A stretch of DNA of 64,000 bases, taken from NCBI GenBank assembly GCA_904379005.1, contig CAJFHH010000014.1, positions 13,556 to 77,555 on the forward strand, given 5' to 3'. This document shows positions 38,234-59,594 of this stretch, in pieces. The position numbers and the translations under genes are program-made. The DNA comes from Candidatus Neoclostridium roslinense. Its GTDB lineage: Bacteria > Bacillota > Clostridia > Christensenellales > Pumilibacteraceae. The first letter of the stretch is position 1. The number at the start of each line of letters is the position of its first letter. The notes beneath the pieces are model-generated. The model was not told the origin of the DNA, did no database searches, and saw nothing but the letters and a program-made list of their open reading frames with translations.

Positions 38234-38262
38234 TTGACATTTTTATTTGTGTTCGATATAAT
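38234..38262 (+). promoter_or_regulatory. Consensus sigma-A promoter for tRNA-Thr
   Basis: TTGACA (38234-38239), 17-nt spacer, TATAAT (38257-38262). Confidence 0.6.
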
Positions 38263-38330: not shown

Positions 38331-38406
<76 letters not shown>

Positions 38407-38415
38407 CAAGTGAAT

Positions 38416-38457
38416 AATACGAACCTCGGCGAAATGTCGGGGTTCGTATTCTTTTGT
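38416..38457 (+). terminator. Rho-independent terminator after tRNA-Thr
   Basis: AATACGAACC ... GGTTCGTATT (10-bp stem) followed by CTTTTGT. Confidence 0.65.
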
Positions 38458-38767: not shown

Positions 38768-38794
38768 GGCAAATATAAATTCAGAGGTGTTAAA

Positions 38795-39466
38795 ATGGAA
38801 ATGTTGGTAACAAAGTTCTCAAACGGAAAGTATCGCAACGAAGGCGAATGGTTCGCAGAGCCTATCTCTGCCGAGAACATCAAGCTCATGGGCGAAATGA
38901 TCGCGTTGCAGGCATTGCGTACCGTGAAAAAGTATGATTTAAAAATCGCGGACAGACTGTATATCGGTCTCATCAAAGACCTGCACCATATGCGTGAGAT
39001 AGACTATATCGTATCGGATGGCTATGACGTAGCGCAAACTGCTATCTGCTTTCTCTATAAATTCGTCGGTCGTACAGCACATGAGATTTACGGTAAAGAC
39101 CGCAAAGGGAAAGAAATCACCATTAAACTTGCCTGCTATCGTGAAGTAGACAGCTTTATCAACCTTCTTTGTAACAGGCCGGACAGGCGCGGAACTGTCG
39201 TTGAATCCATTGACTTTACAGACTACAAGGCTCTGCCTATGGATCCCGTGAATTGTTTTGAAAAAGAACAGACCGATTACAGCAAATACGATGAACTCGT
39301 AGGCGCGTTGCAGTTATCCGCTTTGGAACTTGCCATTTTAAACTGCTACATGAACGGTATGAGGCAAGCCGAAGTCTGCGCCGAGCTCGGCATCGGCAGA
39401 GGAACGATAAACCACCGCAAGGCGAGCATACGTCAAAGGTATCAGGAGCTTTACGGCGCATACTGA
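38795..39466 (+). CDS. Sigma-70 family-like protein (region 2-like core plus region 4 HTH), mobile-element type
   Basis: C-terminal LSALELAILNCYMNGMRQAEVCAELGIGRGTINHRKASIRQRY is a region-4/LuxR-type HTH. The central DGYDVAQTAICFLYKF is region-2-like. The start was moved to ATG 38795. Third codon positions look visibly more A/T-rich than in neighbouring genes. Confidence 0.6.
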   Translation: MEMLVTKFSNGKYRNEGEWFAEPISAENIKLMGEMIALQALRTVKKYDLKIADRLYIGLIKDLHHMREIDYIVSDGYDVAQTAICFLYKFVGRTAHEIYGKDRKGKEITIKLACYREVDSFINLLCNRPDRRGTVVESIDFTDYKALPMDPVNCFEKEQTDYSKYDELVGALQLSALELAILNCYMNGMRQAEVCAELGIGRGTINHRKASIRQRYQELYGAY

Positions 39467-39525: not shown

Positions 39526-39882
39526 TGGGGGAAGATTATCACGCGGTCAAAATTATTGCAAATAGTTATTTTCTATCGCTTACAATAGCTTGTGGTTATT
39601 GCAAAAATGATGTATAATAAAACTTGAAGAAGCAAAATTGCCGATAAAACCGCGGTTGTTTTATAAAAATTAAAATTTGCTTATATCCGCGTAACAATAA
39701 AGGCAATTATGTTACAATATACTACACGCGTTTGCGGTAGTACGGCGCGCCGTCGGCGCCGAAAAGCATAAAAAAGCCAAAATATCGGCGGCGGTTTTTG
39801 TCATACGGCGGATTGACACCCCGAAGAAAAATAACAAAACCGACTTATAATCAAAAGAGATCCAACAAAAGGAGTAGAGTAT

Positions 39883-41553
39883 ATGAAGAACAAAGACAAA
39901 ATATTACTTACCGAAATGCAGCTTAAAATACTGACGCTCAAAGTGCTCGGTATAGGAATTATCGCGTATTTATTGATGATGGTCGTACATTTAAGCGGAT
40001 TGTACAGGCTGGACGCCGGCAGCTGGATATTGTTGTTCGGACTGACGGCGGCGGCAGCGGTGCAGTGGTCGGTTTTGGTGTGCCTGCTGTATTATACCGG
40101 CAGCTTAAACGGCAAGACGGCTTTCGGGACGGTGCTTAAAAAGGTGCTGGCGTTTATTCCGACGTACGCGGCGGTAATAGTCGTCATAGTGCTGTTCAGC
40201 GTGCCCGTCGAAAATTTCAACGTCCGCGCCGACAACTTCTTTATAGGACTGATGCTGTTTGCCTTGTGCTGCGTAGTCGCTTTTCTGATAATAGCCGGGA
40301 TAGAGCACTTGGCGCGCAAAAAAGGGTGGACGGTAAACTTTGACGCCCGGGCGTCGCACCTGCCGAAGGACGCCGAAAAGGACAAAAGCGAAGCGCAGAC
40401 CTCCGCCGTAACGGCTACCCATTCCCGCGAAAAGGGCGCAGCGGGCAAGTCGAAACAGCTTATTTTCCCCGATCTCGTGGCGGTGGACGAATATTTTGCC
40501 AAAAACCCGTATGTTCCCGCTGTCAGTTCGGACGTCAGCTTAAAAAAGCTGTGCGACGGCTTTAACGCCTTTCTCGAAAGCAATCATATGTACTACACGC
40601 CGGAAACCATTCGTTCGTTTATCGCGGGCATGGCGTGTTCGCACTTTATCATTCTGGAAGGACTGTCGGGCACGGGCAAGACCTCTCTTCCAAAACATTT
40701 CGCGCAGTACATCGGTTGCGACGTGTGTTTTACTTCGGTGCAGGCGTCGTGGCGCGACCGCAGCGACGTGTTGGGCTATTACAACGACTTTTCGGGCAAC
40801 TTTAAGGAGACGCCTTTTCTGCGTGCGCTTTATACCGCGTCTTATAAGACCGATACGATAAATCTCATGGTGCTGGACGAAATGAATTTAGCGCGCGTCG
40901 AATATTATTTCGCAGATTTTCTGTCCGTGCTGGAACTGGATACGTCCAAATGGAATATAGAGCTCATGCCGTCCTCGACGCAGGGCAAGCTTCCCAAGGC
41001 GTTTACAAACGGATGCTCGGTGGTTATTCCCTTAAACACGTGGTTTATAGGCACGGCCAACAAGGACGATTCGACGTTTACCATCACCGACAAAGTGTAC
41101 GACCGCGCGGCGGTGATTGATTTTTCCAGCCGCAACTCTCAGTCGGGACTTGCCGTCTCCGCCCGACCCGTTCACGTCGGCTTGAAAAAGCTAACGCAGC
41201 TGTTTGACGAGGCGACGTCTTCCGGCGATTTCGGCTTAAGCAAGGAAGAATTCGAGCGTTTCAACAAGCTGAGTGACTTCATGCTGGACAGATTCGACAT
41301 CAACTTCGGCAACAGAATTTACAATCAGATAATGAAATTCGTGCCCGTGTACGTGGCGTGCGGCGGTACGGCGGCAAAGGCGCTGGACATAATGTTCTCG
41401 CGCAAGATACTGCGCAAAATGGAAGGCCGCTTCGACGACGGACTAAAAACCGATATAACCGCTCTTGAAACGCTGATAAACGAACTGTACGGAAAGGAGA
41501 CCTTTTCGCTTACTCTGGACGCGGTAAATAAACTAAAGAGGAAACTCATCTGA
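39883..41553 (+). CDS. Membrane-anchored McrB-family AAA+ GTPase (about four N-terminal TM helices in place of a DNA-reader domain)
   Basis: Hydrophobic helices span roughly aa 18-40, 47-70, 85-106 and 118-140. Walker A is EGLSGTGKTS (nt 40660). SWRDRSDVLGYYN matches the McrB hxSYsYEDF position. Walker B/McrB signature is LMVLDEMNLARVEYYFADFLSVLE (nt 40864). WFIGTANKDDSTF aligns with McrB IIGTMNTADRS and carries an NKxD-like guanine motif (nt 41059). DRAAVIDF aligns with RRF.F. RBS AAAGGAG. Confidence 0.7.
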   Translation: MKNKDKILLTEMQLKILTLKVLGIGIIAYLLMMVVHLSGLYRLDAGSWILLFGLTAAAAVQWSVLVCLLYYTGSLNGKTAFGTVLKKVLAFIPTYAAVIVVIVLFSVPVENFNVRADNFFIGLMLFALCCVVAFLIIAGIEHLARKKGWTVNFDARASHLPKDAEKDKSEAQTSAVTATHSREKGAAGKSKQLIFPDLVAVDEYFAKNPYVPAVSSDVSLKKLCDGFNAFLESNHMYYTPETIRSFIAGMACSHFIILEGLSGTGKTSLPKHFAQYIGCDVCFTSVQASWRDRSDVLGYYNDFSGNFKETPFLRALYTASYKTDTINLMVLDEMNLARVEYYFADFLSVLELDTSKWNIELMPSSTQGKLPKAFTNGCSVVIPLNTWFIGTANKDDSTFTITDKVYDRAAVIDFSSRNSQSGLAVSARPVHVGLKKLTQLFDEATSSGDFGLSKEEFERFNKLSDFMLDRFDINFGNRIYNQIMKFVPVYVACGGTAAKALDIMFSRKILRKMEGRFDDGLKTDITALETLINELYGKETFSLTLDAVNKLKRKLI

Positions 41554-42863
41554 TGTCTTTGTCGGCGCTTAAACAATTTTACGCACAACTGAGCGGTGAC
41601 GTAAACGTTGCCGCAATATGCAAAAAAGCCGCAAAAGGGCAGTTCGACTTTTATTTTCCCGCGCCCGCCAGCCGCAGCGACGACGATATACTGGACGCGA
41701 TAAATTCGGCCATGGGAAATATAATAAACGTCGTCACAACCCCCTATATAGTCTTAAAAACGCAGCTGGATACGCGGCGTGCCGAAAATGTCGGAGCGCT
41801 CACGTCCGAGGGTATGCGTAAAACAATAGCCGACTCCCGCGTCTGGAAAAACGACGAGCAGGGCCCCCGTCCCGAATACGCCTATGCCCGTTCGGCGGAG
41901 GACGAGTACGACACATACGAAAATAAACTGGTCAAGACGCTTATCGACAGACTTAACGACTTTATAGGGCGTCCGCTGGAAGAAACGCGCGGCGGTATCA
42001 AAAGCATGTACGACGTCATGAACAGCCGCCGCAGCTTAAATAAATTCGACATGGTGCGGCTTACCGATTTTAAGGCGCTTGCCGAGTGCGACACCGAATG
42101 TTTTTCGCAGTACAAAAAGCTTTTTTATCTGCGCGCAAAGCTAAGACAGCTAAAAAGCAGCGCGTTTTACAAGATAATGTCGCGGCTGGCCCCTTTTACG
42201 GACGCGGTGCCGCAGCCCACCAATCTGCTGGTGCACAACGCCGATTACAACGCCTGTATGAAACTGTGGCTTCTTATAAGCGACGCCCGCAAGAAACAAG
42301 ACGAACTTACCCGCGAACAAACAAAAGCCGCCTACGCGTCGTTTGTGTTTTTGTATGCGGCATACACGCTGTCGCAGTCGGGATACGAAATAACAGGCGG
42401 TCGGCTGCATCCGGACGGCGATGCCGTTTGCGGCGACGCGGTGGCGCAGGGCAAGTGGCTGACGGTAACAATGCGCTGCGACGCGGAAAGCATTGCGTTC
42501 GACGTCAAATCAAACGTCTCCCCTGTATGCCGTAGCACGCGGGCGGGACTTGTGACTTCCGAGGGCGGCGGCAAAGAATGCGATTATTTTATAAGTATGT
42601 TGCCCACCGTCTGCACCGATAAGACCATATACGCCTTTCCCGACAGCAGATGGTCTCTTAACGACTTGCAGACGCTCGTCGGCTGCCTTGTCATGGTGGT
42701 AGACGTGGCGGAAGACGTGTACGAAAAGCTGTGCGTAGTGTGCGGCGACAACGCCGTTACGCAGAATGAAGGCGTGTTTTGCTGCGGCTCATGCGGAGCG
42801 CAATACGTATTTTTGGCTCCTAACGTTTTGTGGATATGCCGGTTTGCTCCCGAAAAAGAGTAA
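41553..42863 (+). CDS. McrC/DUF2357-like partner protein with degenerate PD-(D/E)xK candidate motif and C-terminal zinc ribbon
   Basis: The start overlaps the upstream stop (TGATG) behind AAGAGGAAA. DTYENKLVKTLIDRL resembles McrC NEDTLANRIIKSTL and the DUF2357 T.EN+..K motif. The order DYNACMKLWLLI, then YASFVFLYAAY, then HPDGD...CDAESIAFDVK parallels the McrC core (..ETD..ILIVDAKYY). The C-terminus reads CVVCGDN..CCGSCGAQY. Confidence 0.5.
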   Translation: MSLSALKQFYAQLSGDVNVAAICKKAAKGQFDFYFPAPASRSDDDILDAINSAMGNIINVVTTPYIVLKTQLDTRRAENVGALTSEGMRKTIADSRVWKNDEQGPRPEYAYARSAEDEYDTYENKLVKTLIDRLNDFIGRPLEETRGGIKSMYDVMNSRRSLNKFDMVRLTDFKALAECDTECFSQYKKLFYLRAKLRQLKSSAFYKIMSRLAPFTDAVPQPTNLLVHNADYNACMKLWLLISDARKKQDELTREQTKAAYASFVFLYAAYTLSQSGYEITGGRLHPDGDAVCGDAVAQGKWLTVTMRCDAESIAFDVKSNVSPVCRSTRAGLVTSEGGGKECDYFISMLPTVCTDKTIYAFPDSRWSLNDLQTLVGCLVMVVDVAEDVYEKLCVVCGDNAVTQNEGVFCCGSCGAQYVFLAPNVLWICRFAPEKE

Positions 42864-51982: not shown

Positions 51983-52354
51983 GGGCCAGCAACGGCATCG
52001 ATTGCCGTCTGCGGAAAGGAAAAGCATGTCGGAGGTTCGGCTCCGTTAAAAACGAAAACAAAATTTAAATGCTAACAATAGCAAAAATTACAGCGCTCCC
52101 GTAGCGCTCGCAGCTTAATCTAAAATTTAAGCTCCGTTCCGGCGGAAAATGCCCACGTTTTTTGCAGGAACGTCATCATCAGTGGGGTATCGCCGTCGTT
52201 GCATCGTCTTCGGCAGCTGCGGCGGGAATCAGGAAGACATGGCGCGGCGCGTTCGTCTGCGGAAACGCCGCCCCGAGATTAAACGCCGACTAAACATGTA
52301 GAAAGCTTTTCTTACGGCGGTAAGACCGCGGTTCAATTCCGCGCTGGTCCACCA
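51983..52354 (+). ncRNA. ssrA: tmRNA (SsrA)
   Basis: 5' GGGCCAG pairs with 3' CTGGTCC-A-CCA, giving a G3:U70 tRNA-Ala-like acceptor. The T arm is CCGCGGTTCAATTCCGCG. The tag [51 protein letters not shown] (52071-52118) encodes ANNSKNYSAPVALAA. Confidence 0.9.
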
Positions 52355-58588: not shown

Positions 58589-59539
58589 TCACTTGTTTTC
58601 GCTTTTTTTAATTTTATTTGCGCGGGGAGCGGTGTTGCGTTCCCAAAACACACCGTCATTGTACCCTTGAATGGTCTTGTCCCATTCGGCGTCTTCCAGC
58701 CGTTTTTCCGCCCATGCGCAGTACAGCGGACTTTTTTCTATGCCGGTGTAGTGCCGGCCTAATTTTTTCGCCGTTACCGATGTGCTGCCCGAACCCAAAA
58801 ACGGATCCAGCACGAGATCGCCCGCGTCCGAACTTGCCAAAATGAGCTTTGCCAGGAGTTTTTCGGGCTTTTGCGTGGGATGGGAGGTATTTTCCGCCAT
58901 CGACCAGTAAGGAACGGAAATATCGTCCCAAAAGTTGGACGGACAGGTGTCGCGGAAATTGCCGCAGGGCGTTTGCTCCCAGTCTTTCGGCGCTCCCTTG
59001 TCGCGATAGGGAGCGATGACGCGTCTTCGCATTTTTACGTCGCTCAGGTTAAAGACATAGTCGTCGGAAACGGTACAGAACCAAATGTCCTCCATGGCGT
59101 TTTTCCAATTTTTTTTACAGCCGCGCCCCTTTTCGCGCTGCCAGGTAATGCGGTTGCGCACGATAAGCAGCTTGTCGAGCGCTTGGCTTATTGCGCCGGA
59201 CGAACGCCAGTCGCAGCACACATATACGGACGCGTCGCGTTTTAAGAGCGGCAGAGCGGCGGAAAGCCAGCTTACGGTGTAGTTTAGATAGTCGTCGTAG
59301 CTGAGCTTTTTGAATTTTTCGCCGTCGAACCGCTTGTCCATATTGTACGGCGGATCGGCTATCATCAAATCGAATATGCCGCACGGCAGCTTTTTAAGTA
59401 CGTCGAACGTGTCGCCGACAATGGTTTTGTCGATGATTTTCTCGGCAGTCAAAGTATCGTCCGCCGTGATGCAGTTTTTAAGATACCGTTGTCCTTCCTG
59501 TATATTAAAGTCGATGGTTTTGTTTCTTTTTGATTTCAT
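58589..59539 (-). CDS. Beta-class N6-adenine/N4-cytosine DNA methyltransferase (N6_N4_Mtase family), apparently orphan
   Basis: Motif IV DPPYN (MIADPPYNMD) precedes motif I (DPFLGSGSTSVTA), and HPTQKPEKL is present. The start was moved to ATG 59539. No endonuclease-like neighbour was found. Confidence 0.85.
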   Translation of the reverse strand: MKSKRNKTIDFNIQEGQRYLKNCITADDTLTAEKIIDKTIVGDTFDVLKKLPCGIFDLMIADPPYNMDKRFDGEKFKKLSYDDYLNYTVSWLSAALPLLKRDASVYVCCDWRSSGAISQALDKLLIVRNRITWQREKGRGCKKNWKNAMEDIWFCTVSDDYVFNLSDVKMRRRVIAPYRDKGAPKDWEQTPCGNFRDTCPSNFWDDISVPYWSMAENTSHPTQKPEKLLAKLILASSDAGDLVLDPFLGSGSTSVTAKKLGRHYTGIEKSPLYCAWAEKRLEDAEWDKTIQGYNDGVFWERNTAPRANKIKKSENK

Positions 59540-59594
59540 GACCTTTCCGTATGCGCTGTTTCGGCGCAAAGTAATATAAAAAATTGCTTTTATG

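Follow-up and report, generated by a model that had tools for sequence, protein, structure and literature searches.

McrBC of Escherichia coli K-12 is the paradigm of a GTP-driven, modification-dependent restriction nuclease. It is encoded by two adjacent, translationally coupled genes, and in McrB the AAA+ core is preceded by an N-terminal DNA-reading domain (PDB 6HZ4, 6UT6, 7VSR). A major non-canonical branch of McrB proteins is defined by an NxD motif followed by D or E, and DUF2357 is treated as the N-terminal domain of McrC (Bell et al. 2024). Within the NxD clade, a class designated CoCoPALM has McrB fused to an FtsB-like single transmembrane (TM) segment and a coiled-coil, with coiled-coils on both proteins; it was named as 'pilus assembly linked to McrBC', is associated with signal peptidases, and its analysis was deferred (Bell et al. 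2024). Only the naming paper and its preprint were found in the literature on CoCoPALM. PADLOC holds a further candidate, PDC-M26, the PDCs being 145 candidates inferred from their embedding in BREX, DISARM or type I restriction-modification (RM) loci (Payne et al. 2024, preprint); no paper on PDC-M26 was found in the searchable literature. CoCoPALM and PDC-M26 are the closest described kinds to the locus reported here, a pair of genes at 39,883–42,863 in a 64,000 nt stretch of the genome of Candidatus Neoclostridium roslinense (hereafter the window; assembly GCA_904379005.1, contig CAJFHH010000014.1, positions 13,556–77,555), which specify a predicted membrane-anchored, McrB-like AAA+ NTPase (gene 1) and an McrC-like partner (gene 2).

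Two kinds of surface-filament system are also relevant, the SipW-TasA and Bsa fibre operons and the type IV pilus clusters of Firmicutes. In Clostridium perfringens, type IV pilus genes aid the secretion of proteins of the sipW-bsa operon, clearly so for BsaC and less conclusively for oligomers of the TasA-like BsaA (PMC11580942). The mention of McrB in that paper is irrelevant, as it occurs only within an E. coli strain genotype. Known systems of these kinds are without an McrBC-like component.

Like McrBC, the pair in the window consists of two adjacent, translationally coupled genes, the AAA+ core of gene 1 has Walker A, DExN and Nx(x)D motifs that align to those of McrB, and the partner is of the McrC/DUF2357 kind, with McrC as its top, but weak, fold match. 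It differs in having four TM helices in gene 1 where McrB has the DNA-reading domain, in a gene 2 product that has an additional zinc ribbon but neither conserved PD-(D/E)xK residues nor sequence resemblance to E. coli McrC, and in a setting that is fixed, without RM association and, in the wider family, one of envelope genes. The McrBC module is seen here without its DNA reader and nuclease site, and with a membrane domain. As judged from its motifs, the pair is an NxD-clade derivative of McrBC, close to CoCoPALM and related to the PADLOC candidate, and it is very probably not a DNA-cutting restriction enzyme. We are confident of the molecular architecture described below. The biological role is proposed more cautiously, as a reading that falls a little short of an even chance: the two proteins may together form a membrane machine that is driven by NTP, descends from the McrBC module and is tied to surface-filament biology.

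The membrane-tethered AAA+ NTPase

Three motifs locate the AAA+ core of gene 1: GLSGTGKT at aa 260, VLDEMNLARVEYYFADFLSVLE at aa 330–351 and IGTANKDDS at aa 389–397. A first-pass annotation, made from the DNA sequence alone, had taken these for McrB-lineage signatures, and all are present. Walker A spans G260-T267 (with K266) and Walker B is D332-E333-x-N335; N393-K-D395-D396 forms the signature, and R408 also lies in the core. Residues G260, S262, G263, G265, K266, D332, E333, N335, N393, D395 and R408 are invariant in 39 diverse homologues and D396 is conserved in at least 90% of them. Position 394 is variable (K, R, T or N), so the last motif is not the guanine-specificity motif NKxD that it had been read as; the conserved pattern is N-x-D-D, which fits the NxD variant of Bell et al. 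In the C-terminal domain, G476-N477-R478, Q482, P488 and G494 are conserved across the same homologues.

A profile of full-length gene 1 searched against PDB gave only G protein-coupled receptor and other TM-protein noise, and the search was repeated with the soluble domain. E. coli McrB was then the sole PDB sequence match at E ≤ 0.01 (E 1.5e-6). Alignment of the gene 1 profile to E. coli K-12 McrB by hhalign gave a probability of 95.9%, with the Walker A, DExN and N-x-x-D regions in register with 201-GPPGVGKT, DEIN and NTAD of McrB. Pfam returned AAA_5 only, below threshold, and PHROGs and NCBIfam gave nothing specific for either gene. Foldseek ranked helix-2-insert AAA+ folds first (dynein, NorQ/MoxR, RavA, MCM and BrxL), and McrB was absent from its top 50 matches. 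Since Foldseek fails to separate McrB from dynein, MoxR, MCM and BrxL, it was not used for clade assignment. The two approaches are divided: by sequence profile gene 1 is closer to McrB, while the fold ranking, with McrB outside the top 50, does not discriminate.

The N-terminal region has four hydrophobic segments by Kyte-Doolittle (KD) hydropathy (aa 12–42, 48–70, 83–116 and 114–146, values 2.0–3.1), and these coincide with helices at aa 11–38, 45–72, 80–106 and 116–146 in the AlphaFold2 (AF2) model (pLDDT, the AF2 confidence score, 84–96; whole-model pLDDT 84.9). In the model they are followed by a disordered linker (pLDDT <50 at aa 155–188), an alpha/beta AAA+ core and a helical C-terminal domain. 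Clusters of K and R occur at the N-terminus, in the loop between TM2 and TM3, and after TM4. Because these positions fit the positive-inside rule, both termini are predicted to be cytoplasmic (N-in/C-in), which would place the ATPase in the cytoplasm. Gene 1 is, on these predictions, a cytoplasmic McrB-type AAA+ NTPase with its catalytic residues all intact, tethered through the linker to a membrane domain. No DNA-binding domain was found by Pfam, hydropathy or AF2, the N-terminus being taken up by the four TM helices and the disordered linker.

All full-length proteins (about 115) among the top 120 homologues have approximately four TM segments ahead of GLSGTGK[TS]. The TM domain keeps its architecture and not its sequence, with identity of 28% inside the group of the window and 12% to distant members, compared with 78% and 62%, respectively, for the AAA+ core. 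Alignment of homologues showed no conserved polar or pore-lining residues in the TM domain, and no sequence conservation was found in the linker.

The McrC-like partner

The stop codon of gene 1 and the start codon of gene 2 share the sequence TGATG, with a 1-base overlap, and Shine-Dalgarno-like sites precede both genes (AAGGAG, 8 nt 5' of the ATG of gene 1, and GAGG, 5' of gene 2). The translational coupling, the ribosome binding site of gene 2, the TM helices with their unstructured linker, the DUF2357/McrC-type partner and the zinc ribbon had all been recognised in the first-pass annotation, and each is borne out here. Gene 2 passes the Pfam threshold for DUF2357 (PF09823; 25.5 bits against a cut-off of 23.3), and the same family is annotated on 10 of 11 close homologues in precomputed records. 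The DTYENKLVKTL motif lies at aa 120–130, HPDGD...FDVK at aa 286–319 and CxxC-x12-CCxxC at aa 394–414. In an alignment of 65 family members the only invariant residues are W98, P107, Y122-E123-N124, C394, C397 and C414, with C411 conserved in at least 90%.

The AF2 model of gene 2 has a pLDDT of 89.4, and its best Foldseek match is McrC chain 6hz4_M, a weak one (E 0.038, prob 0.63), accompanied by the McrC chains 6ut7_G (prob 0.57), 6ut6_G and 6ut5_G. There were no Foldseek matches at E ≤ 0.001, and the alignment to McrC is full-length but weak. The family profile showed no similarity to E. coli McrC (hhalign 0.25%), which, after this failed alignment, is regarded as not being a DUF2357-type sequence neighbour. 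The zinc ribbon gives weak profile matches to the eL43/L37Ae zinc ribbon. No long coiled-coil is present in the AF2 secondary structure of gene 1 or gene 2.

A possible PD-(D/E)xK nuclease site had been proposed in the HPDGD...DVK region, and this did not hold across the family. The window protein has D310 and D317-V-K319, and the pattern D...[DE]-V-K is kept by a few relatives. Of the 65 members, only 10 have K at position 319 and 30 have D or E at position 310, and the D317 column is mixed; no acidic or lysine residue is invariant between aa 250 and 390. The alpha/beta domain of gene 2 is probably an inactivated nuclease-like fold, and the partner family as a whole is, by its residue conservation, a nuclease-less McrC-like protein with a zinc ribbon.

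Some partner-family proteins are longer. In P0173, P0179 and P0193 (942–1123 aa) the zinc ribbon is immediately followed by a GNAT acetyltransferase domain (Acetyltransf_3, E 1e-16 to 8e-19), and other McrC-like partners have C-terminal extensions of 200–650 aa without a Pfam match.

Family size and genomic context

Homologues of gene 1 form at least 7993 clusters at 90% identity, every one of them unnamed or 'hypothetical', and a scan of GTDB species genomes found relatives in at least 591 species. A profile search with gene 2 recovered 1260 representatives at 50% identity. The named hosts are Bacillota or Mollicutes-type, with the exception of two metagenomic bins that bear the names Bacteroides uniformis and Roseburia hominis, and the host groups include uncultured Clostridia, Christensenellaceae, Bacilli, Acholeplasmatales and Anaeroplasmataceae. 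Loci from 75 species were used to examine context, and in 70 of these the DUF2357/zinc-ribbon partner lies directly 3' of the gene 1 homologue, which supports a conserved gene pairing. The cluster count, the shared layout of four TM segments and Walker A, and the partner in 70/75 loci place the pair architecture far beyond chance.

The 75 loci split cleanly into two classes. Class II, of Bacilli/Mollicutes type, accounts for 57 of them, and here the pair lies inside a conserved, co-directional cluster. Taking gene 1 and gene 2 as positions 0 and +1, the gene at −1 encodes a SipW-type signal peptidase I (all 14 loci scanned match NF046067, at best with E 5.9e-20), while −3 and −2, and often +6, are small paralogues of 205–250 aa with a signal-anchor ending G-F-A-A-W-[VI]-I-[TS]. 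Downstream of the pair are an ABC ATPase (+2), an ABC-2-like permease with 10–11 TM segments (+3), an exported protein of about 820 aa without a family (+4) and a surface lipoprotein with Flg_new repeats (+5).

Class I is of Clostridia type and includes the window, with which its members share 49% identity or more. The pair stands alone in this class, and its flanks vary by lineage, being either housekeeping or envelope genes. In five class I species (L007, L014, L015, L016 and L040) pilD-pilC-pilB lies directly upstream of the pair on the same strand, with gaps of 25–71 bp to the pair in four of the five; one of these loci, L040, stands nearest to the window among its GTDB relatives (72%). 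In another species (L009) the pair has a gene of prepilin type as its neighbour, with a WYL regulator encoded upstream. In L007 the pair is immediately followed by PrfB and TsaD, and in L012 its neighbour is MnmA. No SipW was found near the pair in the window or in any class I locus, and PADLOC found no recurrent defence system among 83 class I neighbours. Across both classes, the family is genomically tied to surface filaments, by the SipW cluster in Bacilli/Mollicutes-type genomes and by pilD-pilC-pilB in Clostridia.

The class II cluster is in itself an unusual assemblage of about ten genes in gut Bacilli/Mollicutes-type genomes (for example, L024 6456–18388, L058 6926–19024 and L047 6770–19242), and most of its components have no family assignment.

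The family shares with CoCoPALM the N-x-D then D/E NTPase signature, membrane anchoring and, in its wider membership, the association with signal peptidase or pilus assembly genes (SipW in 57/75 loci, pilBCD in five class I loci). It differs from CoCoPALM in the four-TM bundle of gene 1, the lack of a long coiled-coil in either protein and the zinc-ribbon partner, and the window locus itself has neither signal peptidase nor pilus genes. A separate ATPase subfamily, found in L080, L081 and L088–L092, has a single N-terminal TM segment and partners of 402–609 aa without a zinc ribbon, and one of its loci (L081) also has SipW-like matches. This subfamily may be CoCoPALM proper.

The relationship to PDC-M26 is one-sided. 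PDC-M26A matches gene 1 (E 2.4e-48) and all 39 relatives tested (E ~1e-48 to 1e-51), and its alignment to gene 1 covers the soluble core only (profile positions 299–443 of 724, and a second stretch). Gene 2 does not match PDC-M26B, and only one distant member of the 65 in the partner family does so. With gene 2 unmatched, PADLOC is unlikely to report this system at the window locus. The architecture had been thought undescribed at first, which is only partly right: gene 1 matches PDC-M26A and a related class was named by Bell et al.

Genomic context in the species of the window

Contigs that encode the exact TrkA of the window gave ten distinct strain contexts. The pair adjoins trkA in all ten, and in a relative at 73% (L004) it is likewise syntenic with trkA-trkH. 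Among the strain contexts, the stretch immediately upstream of gene 1 is hypervariable, with four kinds of content: a gene for a 223-aa helix-turn-helix (HTH) protein alone (as in the window); an element with recombinase, Rep and Metallophos genes; a recombinase with KwaA and type I/IIG RM genes, in one strain; and Fe-ADH/FMN-reductase genes. The window and a sister-strain locus (L001) differ by a 7.2 kb insertion, an element carried by sister strains that sits exactly at the 3' end of tRNA-Thr; it brings another copy of tRNA-Thr together with genes for Metallophos, Rep and a large serine recombinase, and the pair lies outside it. Because all ten contexts have the pair next to differing upstream DNA, and because its synteny extends to the 73% relative, the pair is a fixed part of the chromosome that borders an integration hotspot, and not accessory cargo.

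Two expectations of the first-pass annotation are not supported by these comparisons. The pair had been placed in a tRNA-adjacent accessory patch, which is at odds with its position outside the mobile DNA, its presence in every strain context and its synteny with trkAH; and the defence-island neighbourhood that would be expected of such a module is not seen, no defence system recurring among the 83 class I neighbours and the neighbours in the wider family being SipW, secreted paralogues and an ABC transporter, or type IV pilus genes.

The 3' end of tRNA-Thr(GGT) is in its own right a strain-variable integration hotspot, as seen in the window (tRNA-Thr and terminator), in L001 (1289–8518) and in L096 (13373–18684). 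A perfect sigma-70 consensus promoter lies upstream of the tRNA gene, and a strong terminator follows it.

Two candidates for functional partners were considered and rejected. The 223-aa HTH gene, as a regulator of the module, is missing from 4/10 strain contexts and is not a fixed component. A functional tie to the genes for trkA, trkH and a cyclic di-AMP receptor was dismissed as the synteny is confined to the species of the window and one relative.

Biological role and alternative explanations

A role of the pair at the cell envelope is favoured because class II relatives hold it within the cluster of SipW, ABC-2, Flg_new and paralogue genes (57/75 loci) and five class I species have pilD-pilC-pilB upstream; because the pair is fixed, its AAA+ core is unusually conserved (62–78%) and defence neighbours do not recur; and because Bell et al. 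(2024) independently noted an McrBC clade linked to signal peptidase and pilus genes. The class II loci resemble the SipW-TasA and Bsa fibre operons in having a SipW-type peptidase beside small, signal-anchored paralogues, and the five class I loci that follow pilD-pilC-pilB resemble the type IV pilus clusters of Firmicutes. By analogy with the McrBC structures (PDB 6HZ4, 6UT6), gene 1 would form a hexameric ring under the membrane, with 24 TM helices, and the DUF2357 finger of gene 2 would enter the pore of the ring and stimulate NTP hydrolysis. The resulting work may be applied to the membrane domain, or to a ligand at the zinc-ribbon end of gene 2. Genomic context suggests that the output would be mechanical or regulatory work at the membrane, not DNA cleavage, and would help to assemble, secrete or control pili or surface fibres. 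In the lineage of the window the pair would act without linked partner genes.

Several points weigh against a filament role. The link is guilt by association, drawn from relatives at 42–72% identity, and no pilus, SipW or ABC genes adjoin the pair of the window itself. A TasA-like identity of the small GFAAW proteins is suggested by their adjacency to SipW, but was not borne out by Pfam, NCBIfam, source names or a search of PDB sequences, and these paralogues differ from the known fibre systems in that no similarity could be detected between them and TasA or any solved structure. To our knowledge, McrBC modules are otherwise found only in restriction and defence, and we know of no way for an McrB ring to aid fibre assembly. 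Gene 1 strongly matches the PADLOC defence candidate PDC-M26A, one relative (L009) has the WYL regulator upstream, KwaA and RM genes are present in the adjacent hotspot in one strain, and the GNAT domains of some partner-family members could be toxin-like effectors.

The last four of these points would suit an anti-phage or anti-plasmid defence of McrBC lineage, the interpretation first put forward for the pair, in which the partner would sense an invader cue at the membrane (for example, DNA arriving by a pilus route) and the TM domain of the activated ring would then depolarise the membrane (abortive infection) or block entry. The McrB/McrC ancestry of the pair also fits, as do the PDC-M26A matches of all 39 members tested, the single partner that matches PDC-M26B, the embedding of PDCs in BREX and DISARM loci and in those of type I RM, the differing flanks of class I lineages and, as is generally known, the common use of pili as phage receptors. 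What makes defence an unlikely explanation, if one to be taken seriously, is that the pair is present in every strain context and outside the 7.2 kb tRNA-Thr element, is syntenic across species, has an AAA+ core far more conserved than typical defence genes, and has no recurring defence system among its 83 neighbours, while most family members lie in a strongly syntenic envelope gene cluster. The TM domain, moreover, has no conserved polar or pore-lining residues, and PDC-M26 is itself only a candidate, whose second component gene 2 does not match. Overall, the defence interpretation is weakly supported.

The pair might instead be a generic AAA_5/MoxR-type membrane-associated chaperone with a superficial likeness to McrBC, as could be argued from the Foldseek ranking of dynein AAA modules, NorQ/MoxR, RavA, MCM and BrxL above McrB and from a Pfam AAA_5 match that is sub-threshold only. 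This is very improbable given that McrB is the only AAA+ match in PDB by sequence profile, with an hhalign probability of 95.9%, that the DExN and Nx(x)D motifs, which are specific to McrB, do not vary, and that the obligate partner has DUF2357 and not a VWA domain. It is even harder to credit the pair as a membrane-tethered but conventional type IV restriction enzyme, in which gene 2 would cut through D310, D317 and K319 or a PD-(D/E)xK site in HPDGD...DVK. These residues are indeed present in the window protein, their pattern is retained in a few relatives, and McrC chains are the top fold matches of gene 2. Set against this, the lysine is kept in so few members and the acidic positions are so variable, D310 and D317xK319 appear in the AF2 model to lie on a single hairpin or strand and not on adjacent strands, gene 1 has no DNA-binding domain, and the gene 2 family has no sequence similarity to E. 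coli McrC.

A more specific form of the filament reading is distinctly speculative, and we consider it improbable as it stands: the pair and its family of about 8000 clusters could be the energising or gating motor of an unrecognised Gram-positive surface-filament or secretion apparatus. Such an apparatus would consist, in gut Bacilli/Mollicutes, of SipW-processed fibres and an ABC-2 exporter and, in Clostridia, of the type IV pilus machinery. The McrB ring would be embedded in the membrane, and the McrC-like protein would be its central shaft or its regulator.

Features of the locus and the rest of the window

Coordinates are collected in Table 1. The promoter-like site upstream of gene 1 is weak and comes from a consensus scan only, in which the number of such sites was not above shuffled expectation. 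The rest of the window is core housekeeping, with genes for MetRS, GyrBA, SecA, PrfB, TsaD and MnmA. A full-length tmRNA was detected by Rfam and went unreported by the ARAGORN scan. The window also encodes a very large surface protease of subtilisin type, and an apparently solitary N6/N4 DNA methyltransferase beside an AraC-type regulator. Just past the 3' end of the window is a DUF4011/AAA_11/AAA_12/MTES_1575 helicase, and a helicase of the same type lies upstream in L004.

Table 1. Positions of the gene pair, its predicted domains and other features in the window (numbered from the first nucleotide of the window).
Feature	Position	Strand	Evidence or description
Surface subtilisin-type protease, 2557 aa	2317..9990	+	ORF; Peptidase_S8, PA, fn3_5, Big_2, LRR_5
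Sigma-70 consensus promoter	38234..38262	+	TTGACA-17-TATAAT, 12/12; ~70 bp upstream of tRNA-Thr
tRNA-Thr(GGT) and terminator	38331..38450		Integration hotspot at tRNA 3' end
Terminator after tRNA-Thr	38416..38450		16-bp stem
223-aa ORF	38792..39466	+	Weak C-terminal sigma-70 region 4/LuxR-type HTH
Promoter-like site upstream of gene 1	39691..39718	+	GTAACA-16-TG-TACAAT, 9/12 matches; consensus scan
Shine-Dalgarno AAGGAG, gene 1	39869..39874	+	Seen directly in sequence
Gene 1, membrane-anchored McrB-like AAA+ NTPase, 556 aa	39883..41553	+	ORF, homologues, AF2, McrB and PDC-M26A matches
Predicted four-helix TM domain, gene 1 aa 11–146	39913..40320	+	KD hydropathy, AF2 helices
Predicted disordered K/E/S/T/A-rich linker, gene 1 aa 147–194	40321..40464	+	AF2 pLDDT, no sequence conservation
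N-helical extension and AAA+ core, gene 1 aa 195–415	40465..41127	+	Invariant motifs, McrB alignment
C-terminal helical (lid-like) domain, gene 1 aa 416–556	41128..41550	+	AF2 helices 434–555, conserved residues
Gene 2, McrC-like partner, 436 aa, coupled via TGATG	41553..42863	+	ORF, junction, AF2, family
DUF2357 (McrC N-terminal) domain, gene 2 aa 54–154	41712..42014	+	Pfam PF09823
C-terminal alpha/beta domain, gene 2 aa 279–390	42387..42722	+	AF2 secondary structure
Zinc ribbon, gene 2 C394, C397, C411, C414	42723..42845	+	Family conservation
tmRNA, full-length	51983..52354	+	Rfam, 144.7 bits
N6/N4 DNA methyltransferase	58589..59569	−	PF01555

Implications

The family is very large, strongly conserved and fully unannotated, and is found in gut Bacillota, including the reduced-genome RF39/Acholeplasmatales lineages. 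Its interest lies in this size and conservation, in the loss of all nucleic-acid-directed parts of the module, and in an unexpected double link to two filament systems. If the pair does serve in defence, it would represent an McrBC derivative that has no nuclease, acts on the membrane and guards a pilus entry route. Were it the motor of a filament or secretion apparatus, this would be the first non-defence, non-nucleic-acid role for an McrBC module, and would define a new class of pilus-associated NTPase. An envelope role, if true, would mean that a defence motor has been exapted for cell-surface biology, and would point to a fibre or secretion apparatus in abundant, uncultured gut bacteria.

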